From the IMG/VR virus record IMGVR_UViG_3300045685_000034, positions 4,507-68,506 of that record: a DNA stretch of 64,000 bases; one strand, written 5' to 3'. Numbering within the stretch: position 1 is the stretch's first letter; each line of letters starts with the position of its first letter. Positions 59,129 to 60,683 of the stretch are shown piece after piece. The position numbers were made by a program, and so were the translations under genes. The stretch is from a virus. The notes below the pieces were generated by a model that saw nothing but the letters and a program-made list of their open reading frames with translations, was not told the DNA's origin and did no database searches.

Positions 59129-59243
59129 ATTAGCACCTCCTTAAAAAATCTTTTTTATTTATAAATACACTATAACAGCAAAGAATACCTCTAAACGCTC
59201 TAAATTATTTTTGAGAAATTAGTTTGATAAAGGGGGAAAGTCA

Positions 59244-60011
59244 GTGAGAGCATTGTCTCTTTTTTCGGGAATCGGCGGATTAGATTTAGCAGCGGAATGG
59301 GCCGGGATCGAAACTGTTGCCTTCTGCGAGAACGCCGATTTTCCCAAAAGAGTATTAAAGAAACAATGGCCAACAGTGCCACAGTTTGAAGATGTAAAAC
59401 AGTTAAATATTAAGACGCTAGAAAGTAGTGGGATAGATGCAAGAACAATTGGAATTATTCACGGAGGATTTCCTTGCCAGCCTTTCTCACTCGCAGGAAA
59501 AGGTAAAGCCGAGAACGACGATCGCTATTTATGGCACGAATTCGCAAGACTCGTTAAGGAAATTCGACCTCGTTGGGTTGTCGGCGAGAATGTACCAGGA
59601 ATTCTTAACCGCGGACTCGAAACAACCGTTAGTGACTTGGAAAAAGAAGGCTACGAAGTTTGGGTTTTCAGTGTTGCAGCTAGTGATATCGGGGCAATCC
59701 ACAAAAGACAAAGGTACTTTATCGTTGCTTGCAACACCCACAGCCAGTCAATCATACAAGAGGATTCGCCCACTTGCACCTTCCGAAGCGAACGGCAAGC
59801 ATGGCAAAGTTCTTCCTGGAAGTATTGGCGAGAATTTCGAGAGCTACATCGGAAAGTACCCGAACCCGGCATTTGTCGAGTGGATGATGGGGTATCCAGA
59901 GAATTGGACAAAAATAGATTGATTGCTTTAGGAAATGCGGTCCAACCGCAACAAGTTTATCCGATCTTTAAAACAATCATGGAAATTGAAAGGATGATGA
60001 GAGCTGAATAA
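59244..60011 (+). CDS. dcm: C5 DNA cytosine methyltransferase, alpha-type subunit
   Basis: LFSGIGG (I), GGFPCQPFS (IV), GENVPG (VI), HKRQRYFIVA (VIII), LGNAV (X). Confidence 0.92.
   Translation: MRALSLFSGIGGLDLAAEWAGIETVAFCENADFPKRVLKKQWPTVPQFEDVKQLNIKTLESSGIDARTIGIIHGGFPCQPFSLAGKGKAENDDRYLWHEFARLVKEIRPRWVVGENVPGILNRGLETTVSDLEKEGYEVWVFSVAASDIGAIHKRQRYFIVACNTHSQSIIQEDSPTCTFRSERQAWQSSSWKYWREFRELHRKVPEPGICRVDDGVSRELDKNRLIALGNAVQPQQVYPIFKTIMEIERMMRAE
59437..59922 (+). CDS. nested alternative-frame ORF, probable beta subunit of the C5-MTase
   Basis: 161 codons wholly inside dcm; ends YPNPAFVEWMMGYPENWT (motif IX-like). Confidence 0.75.
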   Translation: MQEQLELFTEDFLASLSHSQEKVKPRTTIAIYGTNSQDSLRKFDLVGLSARMYQEFLTADSKQPLVTWKKKATKFGFSVLQLVISGQSTKDKGTLSLLATPTASQSYKRIRPLAPSEANGKHGKVLPGSIGENFESYIGKYPNPAFVEWMMGYPENWTKID

Positions 60012-60230: not shown

Positions 60231-60683
60231 TTGTCAAAAATATTAGATGCCTGTTGCGGCAGCCGGATGTTCTGGTTTGATAAGGAAAATCCAGACGTAA
60301 CATTCATGGATTGCCGGCAGTATTACGAAGAACTACCAACAGGCCACGTGGTCAATGTTGATCCAGATATTGTTGCTGACTTTCGAGATATGCCGTTTGA
60401 AGATGACGTTTTTGACATGGTTGTTTTTGATCCGCCGCATCTTATTAACGTTGGTGAAAGCTCTTGGTTGGCAAAGAAATACGGTCGACTAGATGAACTA
60501 TGGCCAGAAGACATAAGACAAGGCTTTGCAGAATGTATGCGAGTTCTGCGGCCGGCTGGAACACTAATTTTTAAATGGAACGAGGATCAGGTTCCACTTT
60601 CTGAGGTGTTAGAGGCTATTGGTCAGCAGCCATTATTTGGAAATAAACGAAGCAAAACACATTGGCTGGTGTTTATGAAATAG
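60231..60683 (+). CDS. small SAM-dependent methyltransferase (probable N6A/N4C DNA MTase)
   Basis: ILDACCGSRMFW, VVFDPPHL, GTLIFKWNE. Confidence 0.88.
   Translation: MSKILDACCGSRMFWFDKENPDVTFMDCRQYYEELPTGHVVNVDPDIVADFRDMPFEDDVFDMVVFDPPHLINVGESSWLAKKYGRLDELWPEDIRQGFAECMRVLRPAGTLIFKWNEDQVPLSEVLEAIGQQPLFGNKRSKTHWLVFMK

Follow-up and report, generated by a model that had tools for sequence, protein, structure and literature searches.

A predicted two-polypeptide C5 cytosine methyltransferase encoded in two frames of one phage gene

The locus studied here raises the question of where a phage C5 cytosine methyltransferase that carries the catalytic motifs of its family, but next to no recognition region, could hold the remainder of the enzyme, and whether an open reading frame (ORF) nested in another frame of the same gene provides it. 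The locus belongs to IMG/VR virus record IMGVR_UViG_3300045685_000034, of which we analyzed a stretch of 64,000 nt (the window), and consists of an outer ORF, alpha, and an inner ORF, beta, both found at the coordinates given in Table 1. A sequence-only reading of this DNA had proposed that the two ORFs encode the subunits of a single methyltransferase, describing beta as a 161-codon ORF lying entirely within alpha, and its coordinates proved to be exact. It also named M.EcoHK31I as a precedent, which holds as stated: there, the beta coding region sits entirely within that of alpha but in a different frame, and the enzyme needs both chains (PMC2836561; PMC3404938). M.EcoHK31I and M.AquI have been described as exceptional two-polypeptide C5 methyltransferases (PMC2836561; PMC3404938), and our literature searches returned no description of the family beyond these two enzymes.

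We consider it likely that alpha and beta are the two polypeptides of one C5 methyltransferase, encoded in two frames of the same DNA, with beta produced by internal initiation and the two chains assembling with each other. Both ORFs are present and conserved among relatives, and both frames are under selection. To our knowledge, few long gene pairs in bacteria and phages are fully nested on the same strand, and gene-calling software is designed to discard them.

Table 1. Features of the alpha/beta locus, in window coordinates.
Feature	Position	Strand	Basis
Shine-Dalgarno-like AAGGGGGAAAG, strong, 3 nt 5' of GTG 59244	59230..59240	+	Read from the sequence
Alpha, catalytic large domain of C5 cytosine methyltransferase, 255 aa, GTG start, motifs I-VIII and X	59244..60011	+	PF00145, phrog_363, AlphaFold2 model
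Alpha motif I, FSGIGG, SAM binding	59262..59279	+	Translation; G9 and G12 invariant in alignment A1
Weak Shine-Dalgarno-like AGAAAGTAGTGGGATAG ahead of the beta ATG	59420..59436	+	Anti-SD duplex -5.4 kcal/mol; ends in the TAG closing the +1 frame upstream
Beta, nested polypeptide, 161 aa, ATG start, +1 frame, proposed small domain (TRD and motif IX)	59437..59922	+	ORF list; tblastn; stop avoidance
Alpha motif IV, GGFPCQPFS, catalytic Cys78	59463..59489	+	Translation; P77, C78 and Q79 invariant in A1
Alpha motif VI, ENV	59586..59594	+	E115, N116 and V117 invariant in A1
Beta hairpin, residues 65-85, LVTWKKKATKFGFSVLQLVIS, over the motif VI-VIII region of alpha	59629..59691	+	pLDDT up to 91
Alpha motif VIII, HKRQRYF	59700..59720	+	H153, R155 and R157 invariant in A1
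Beta LLATPTAS element, residues 97-104, one copy of the [LW]PTPxAxD repeat	59725..59748	+	T100 98% conserved
Alpha linker, residues 168-214, site expected for TRD and motif IX	59745..59885	+	pLDDT <50 throughout
Beta motif IX, PNPAFVEWMMGYPENWT, residues 142-158	59860..59910	+	E148 and M151 invariant
Alpha motif X, LGNAVQP, residues 229-235	59928..59948	+	G230 and N231 invariant in A1; helix confidently modelled

The catalytic chain

Alpha matches PF00145 with an E value of 3e-38, and this match covers residues 1-173 (profile positions 1-175 of 324) with nothing beyond, while the match to phrog_363 has an E value of 8e-73. An AlphaFold2 model based on 56 sequences is confident at residues 1-167 and 223-254, with pLDDT <50 at residues 168-214, and superimposes on M.HhaI (e.g., 2i9k) with a Z score of 24.1 and an rmsd of 2.5 Å over ~200 residues at 28% identity. 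As judged from this model, the superposed part of alpha is the large catalytic domain, with the small domain absent, such that the likeness to M.HhaI extends to the large domain only. M.HhaI itself is a single chain of 327 residues, in which the small domain lies in frame between motifs VIII and X. Between these motifs in alpha, we found neither a TRD nor motif IX, as residues 168-214 have no Pfam match in addition to their low pLDDT. Motifs I, IV, VI and VIII on one chain, the large-domain fold and motif X are those of a C5 methyltransferase, and the initial description of alpha as carrying these motifs with almost no TRD or motif IX is borne out by the truncated Pfam match, the low-confidence linker and the fit to M.HhaI.

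In C5 methyltransferases, the small domain (TRD and motif IX) provides all specific DNA contacts (PMC3404938), which bears directly on the possibility that alpha alone is a working methyltransferase with relaxed or no specificity, beta being a separate protein, dispensable for catalysis, with a role such as regulation or the modulation of specificity. Alpha does carry all the catalytic motifs as well as motif X and folds confidently in the model, and its linker keeps residues of its own, W195 and W203, which are 88% conserved; this indicates that the linker is under some constraint of its own and that the overlap partly serves both proteins. We nevertheless regard an independently working alpha as unlikely: it is without the domain from which specific contacts come, the alpha chain of M.EcoHK31I is inactive alone, and what is conserved in beta coincides exactly with the TRD and motif IX elements found between motifs VIII and X of single-chain enzymes.

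The nested frame and the selection acting on it

The C-terminal part of beta reads, in translation, ...LLATPTASQSYK...YPNPAFVEWMMGYPENWTKID, and the +1-frame translation includes FVEWMMGYPENWTK as well as the first of these stretches. The end of the nested ORF had been said to resemble motif IX, and it does so in PNPAFVEWMMGYPENWT, in which, besides the invariant E148 and M151, each of P144, F146, V147, W149, M150, G152, P154, W157 and T158 is at least 90% conserved. By eye, LNPAFVEWMMGYPENW aligns with motif IX of M.HhaI (LHPRECARVMGYPDSY). The identification of motif IX in beta is one of motif-level similarity, without a profile match: Pfam searches with beta return no family even at E 10, as do searches with the longer +1-frame products of four relatives (L113, L218, L219 and L115); a beta profile run against PDB sequences gives a chance match only (E 0.33); and a search of the ESM Atlas retrieves clusters of viral "hypothetical proteins" and nothing else. 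Beta does match phrog_1008, labelled "DNA methyltransferase", with an E value of 4e-26.

The beta profile also matches long single-chain enzymes of actinobacterial type (P0152, 818 aa; P0154; P0155; P0166; and P0174 from Bifidobacterium boum, 672 aa), in which motifs IV and VI are followed by PTP repeats, then by "..P.F.EWMMGLP.GW", and ~20 residues further on by motif X, all in one frame. Repeats of the [LW]PTPxAxD type are a typical element of recognition domains in this methyltransferase family, and are also found between motifs VIII and X of single-chain enzymes. Since the same module is in frame in these enzymes, the C-terminal two thirds of beta match their TRD and motif IX region, and on this comparison the C-terminal half of beta is homologous to that region. 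Beta seems to hold the whole small domain, that is, the TRD together with motif IX, beyond motif IX alone. While the window locus and the single-chain enzymes (P0174, P0152) share the module of [LW]PTPxAxD and "..P.F.EWMMG[LF]P.GW" between motifs VIII and X, the latter differ in having all motifs in one frame and one chain, and a much longer recognition domain, with no need for dual coding. We note in addition an 869-residue beta-like protein from a JGI metagenome (P0145), which begins MPEQLTLF, carries PTP repeats and NPEFVEWMMGFPRGWTDL at residue 292, and continues for ~570 unrelated residues; either a fusion or the loss of a stop codon accounts for the extra length.

Folded alone, beta is modelled with a mean pLDDT of 57, residues 65-85 being the sole high-confidence part. 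Its first ~25 residues are modelled as disordered, and the codon entropy of alpha over them is ~0.9 (see below for this measure), so that beta itself is under little selection there; they may be dispensable as a leader. The N-terminal likeness of beta among relatives is, as read from the sequences, partly an echo of the conserved motifs IV-VI of alpha. In M.EcoHK31I, the N-terminal part of beta helps to bind alpha (PMC2836561; PMC3404938).

We assessed selection on the +1 frame in 103 non-redundant genes sharing <70% alpha identity, which were chosen on the alpha N-terminus only, counting stops over a fixed span that starts at motif IV and ends 25 codons short of motif X and taking the expectation from synonymous shuffling of alpha. 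The +1 frame contains 9 stops across these genes compared to 493 expected, and 96 genes have no +1-frame stop at all (1.9 expected), while the +2 frame, used as a control, has 1172 stops against an expected 1230. For the window gene alone, the +1 frame was open over the span of beta in none of 500 synonymous shuffles, with no stops in the actual sequence against 5.9 expected, and the +2 frame has 9 stops (12.1 expected).

Synonymous sites give a corresponding picture. At conserved alpha columns, the normalized synonymous codon entropy of alpha reaches 0.96 in the alpha-only stretch at the 5' end and 0.90 in that at the 3' end, but only 0.71 across motifs IV-VIII and 0.33 where the C-terminal half of beta (TRD and motif IX) overlaps; over the alpha linker region it was 0.21-0.33 across two runs of the codon-freeze analysis. 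The first of these runs was biased at motif IX, as its loci had partly been fetched with the pattern FVEWMMGY, and the analysis was rerun on loci selected on the alpha N-terminus. Over motif IX of beta, the codons of alpha are frozen to GGG at G216 (89 of 98), CCC at P218 (67 of 69), GAC at D222 (77 of 78) and GTG at V213 (60 of 65). Upstream of this, A146 is encoded by GCT in 99 of 101 genes and L132 by TTG or CTG in 100 of 102, the latter choice keeping W68 of beta and its LFQLxPS strand, such that frozen codons also underlie the beta hairpin at residues 65-85.

The direction of this constraint can be read at motif IX, where the alpha sequence CRVDDGVS is forced by beta. The beta residues E-W-M-M-G (GAG TGG ATG ATG GGN) fully fix alpha as x-V-D-D-G and the converse does not apply; because VDDG leaves beta free in this way, beta is the driving, selected frame here. 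Codon by codon, in both L115 and the window gene, EPxLGRVAxGVPxRVDRLK is the -1-frame image of LNPxWVEWLMGFPxGWTDL in beta. The former spans alpha residues 207-225 (59862-59918) and is common in annotated phage cytosine methyltransferases. The sequence of the alpha linker is largely dictated by the beta frame. Compared pairwise with its three closest relatives, the window gene shows too few substitutions to tell the frames apart, and one of these relatives (L006) is recombinant at its 5' end.

On these codon-level measures, beta is a selected frame and not a chance ORF. A nested layout does resemble a double frameshift, and could in principle reflect a single-chain methyltransferase broken by two compensating indels or by sequencing errors, or else an inner ORF arising by chance from the composition of alpha. 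We find this hardly credible, since the deficit of stops and the frozen synonymous sites rule out chance, and the same layout recurs in more than 100 lineages with <70% alpha identity, spanning phages, plasmids and bacterial genomes. Sequencing error and a pseudogene were rejected on the grounds of this conservation, and the check proposed at the outset, namely whether the nested ORF is conserved, came out in its favor, with purifying selection in more than 100 diverged relatives.

The start of beta is under similarly visible constraint. In the window, its ATG lies at -9 codons from motif IV, directly after the +1-frame TAG, and the next in-frame starts of beta are ATG 59590 and a GTG at beta codon 79. 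Of the 103 genes, 98% have a +1-frame ATG between -25 and +22 codons from motif IV, compared to 7% for frame 0 and 28% for the +2 frame, and the +1-frame ATGs cluster at -13, -10, -9 and +18 codons. A start codon stands behind a Shine-Dalgarno-like site of -7 kcal/mol or lower in 71% of the 103 genes. Sites at the same place in relatives are often stronger than that of the window (-9 to -14 kcal/mol), with the strong ones, such as GGGAGGTG or GAAGGAGGA, reaching -13 to -14 kcal/mol. As read from these signals, beta is probably made by internal initiation. The conserved starts and Shine-Dalgarno-like sites fit such a mechanism. In M.EcoHK31I, beta starts internally, and the enzyme loses its activity when the internal Met codons of beta are removed by changes that are silent in alpha (PMC2836561).

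Relatives of the window gene and variants of its layout

Searches with beta by tblastn give matches at 98% coverage and 40-52% identity, always in the +1 frame relative to alpha, and these fall within genes annotated as cytosine methyltransferases in Bacillus phage yong1, Harrison-group Paenibacillus phages, phage Lily and plasmids of the Bacillus cereus group. Annotators had been suspected of dropping the inner frame, and this is indeed what the records reflect: among the phage and plasmid records, the inner gene is annotated solely in phage Lily (KP296792.1), and the others list alpha only. The Lily entry, LILY_63 (L003:1480-1971), is a "hypothetical protein" that carries the note "g62 internal gene".

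The same two-frame layout is found at ~110 loci from IMG/VR and other sources, part of which had been retrieved via beta-derived patterns. We therefore drew another 160 loci, taken from both bacterial genomes and viral contigs, with patterns from the N-terminal 162 residues of alpha only. A strict motif test scores 101 of the 146 scorable loci in this sample as nested; of the 25 loci classed as having no motif, most have a variant form of the motif (e.g., VAEMMGFPPNWT or FWEEMMGFPIGWT), and at a few loci the +1 frame extends through motif X. None has motifs IX and X both in the frame of alpha, and among the 160 loci we found no close relative with one uninterrupted frame running through motifs I-VIII, the TRD, IX and X. 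Overall, the nested ORF is present in nearly all relatives, and its stop usually falls ~60-160 nt 5' of the alpha stop.

One set of loci stands out in that an alpha of 345 aa and a +1 frame of 281 codons (with the beta tail NPDWVEWLMGFPKGWTDVSSGPPNRKESPA) are near-identical in L170, L172-L177, L180, L181 and L185-L189, the hosts being Gemmiger, Blautia, Coprococcus, Flintibacter, Moryella and other gut Clostridia. The presence of nearly the same alpha and beta sequences in many genera points to transfer between gut Firmicutes on a mobile element or prophage.

A different arrangement is seen in L113 (Brevibacillus ruminantium), L218 and L219, which have an AquI-like split: alpha ends after motif VIII, and the +1 frame continues via PTP repeats to motif IX and motif X. 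M.AquI (Agmenellum quadruplicatum, CYCGRG) is divided into an N-terminal catalytic chain and a second one that bears the distal variable region and motifs IX and X (PMC3404938). The window pair resembles M.AquI in its predicted division into two chains, but unlike M.AquI its motif X stays on alpha and its beta is fully nested, which sets it apart from the AquI type. In L113:2075-3208 (CP098755.1), the frame beside the motif X region reads EWQRA*RIGWRD*, which resembles a degraded EWLMGFPIGWTD and would fit a duplication having undone the overlap. In the AquI-like and single-chain variants, then, the overlap seems to have been undone or rearranged.

Fused forms also occur in the databases. In P0011, P0019, P0128 and P0133, the N-terminus of alpha is fused to the C-terminus of beta, without motif X, and the joins differ between them (a 1-nt change or a deletion); differing joins and the lack of motif X indicate that these fused proteins are sporadic mutations or assembly errors rather than a programmed product. 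At L114:1272-2036, on a contig from a JGI metagenome, a frame change of one base shortly after motif IV joins the first ~86 residues of alpha to the beta frame, giving P0128, which is an example of the chimeric "methyltransferases" produced by gene callers.

Such forms (P0011, P0133) speak for the possibility that alpha and beta are joined into one normal single chain by a double programmed frameshift, with the ribosome shifting by +1 past motif VIII and by -1 past motif IX, close to a run of five A residues (A5, 59905-59909). It is the case both that the motifs fall into canonical order once the frames are joined and that the A5 run of the window phage lies at the beta-to-alpha junction. We consider this route very improbable. 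The +1 frame is open and selected from before motif IV, as seen at A146 and L132, which a shift after motif VIII does not require; a +1-frame ATG near motif IV is almost universally kept; beta ends at a variable distance past GWT in relatives, leaving no conserved shift site; and the fused database forms differ in their join points, through loss of 1 nt or a deletion, and are missing motif X. We rejected the frameshift on the basis of the selection and the start codons upstream of motif VIII.

The proposed two-chain enzyme

Returning to the reading of alpha and beta as two chains of one enzyme, alpha would provide SAM binding, the catalytic Cys78, motifs I-VIII and the motif X helix. Beta, separately initiated at ATG 59437 just 5' of motif IV, would bring the small domain, comprising a helix and hairpin, TPTAS-type recognition loops and motif IX; that beta supplies this domain is supported by alpha alone being incomplete by Pfam, the AlphaFold2 model and the M.HhaI fit. 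The two chains would then join into the usual C5-methyltransferase shape as an obligate heterodimer, as in M.EcoHK31I. We infer from the patterns described above that beta is translated and that both chains are needed; the complex would have a target sequence, and, as an orphan methylase, would shield phage DNA from host restriction.

The likeness to M.EcoHK31I (E. coli HK31, YGGCCR), with beta inside alpha in another frame, is one of layout. The window pair shows the features of that type: a nested ORF on the same strand, motifs I-VIII and X on alpha, and motif IX on beta. There are, however, two differences. In M.EcoHK31I, the predicted TRD has been placed in alpha by the literature, whereas in the window the TRD-like elements are on beta, and the alpha linker is 47 residues long. 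Furthermore, M.EcoHK31I is a member of a restriction-modification system, whereas the window enzyme is encoded by a phage, with no nuclease gene adjoining the alpha/beta locus among the neighboring genes of the window.

We think it probable that the arrangement extends well beyond this phage, in that the short (~250-350 aa) "DNA cytosine methyltransferase" genes of Firmicutes phages, prophages and phage-plasmids all encode obligate heterodimers, with a recognition subunit that is unannotated and overprinted over 480-900 nt. By the same account, the annotated C-terminal alpha sequence EPxxxRVxxGxPxRxDRLK would be largely an out-of-frame shadow of motif IX of beta, the placement of the TRD in M.EcoHK31I might need revision, and these would be among the largest and oldest same-strand nested pairs in prokaryotic viruses. 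If true, the two-frame methyltransferase would be a whole family and no longer a single E. coli oddity, and the complete set of genes behind a common anti-restriction methylase would have been identified. The subunit that probably sets target specificity is absent from nearly all records, which makes it unreliable to predict specificity from alpha alone. The nested methyltransferase family would also offer a natural case of two folded proteins sharing one DNA sequence.

The surroundings of alpha and beta in the window form a phage replication and DNA-metabolism module, with a DnaB-like helicase, an HNH endonuclease and a MazG-like protein. A second DNA methyltransferase gene (60231-60683, plus strand, 150 aa) is located 220 nt downstream of alpha; its product matches phrog_954 with an E value of 4e-82, as well as the Pfam families Methyltransf_11 and Methyltransf_25. 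The phage therefore has a two-methylase module, beside which a nuclease gene is absent, with both methylase genes on the same strand.
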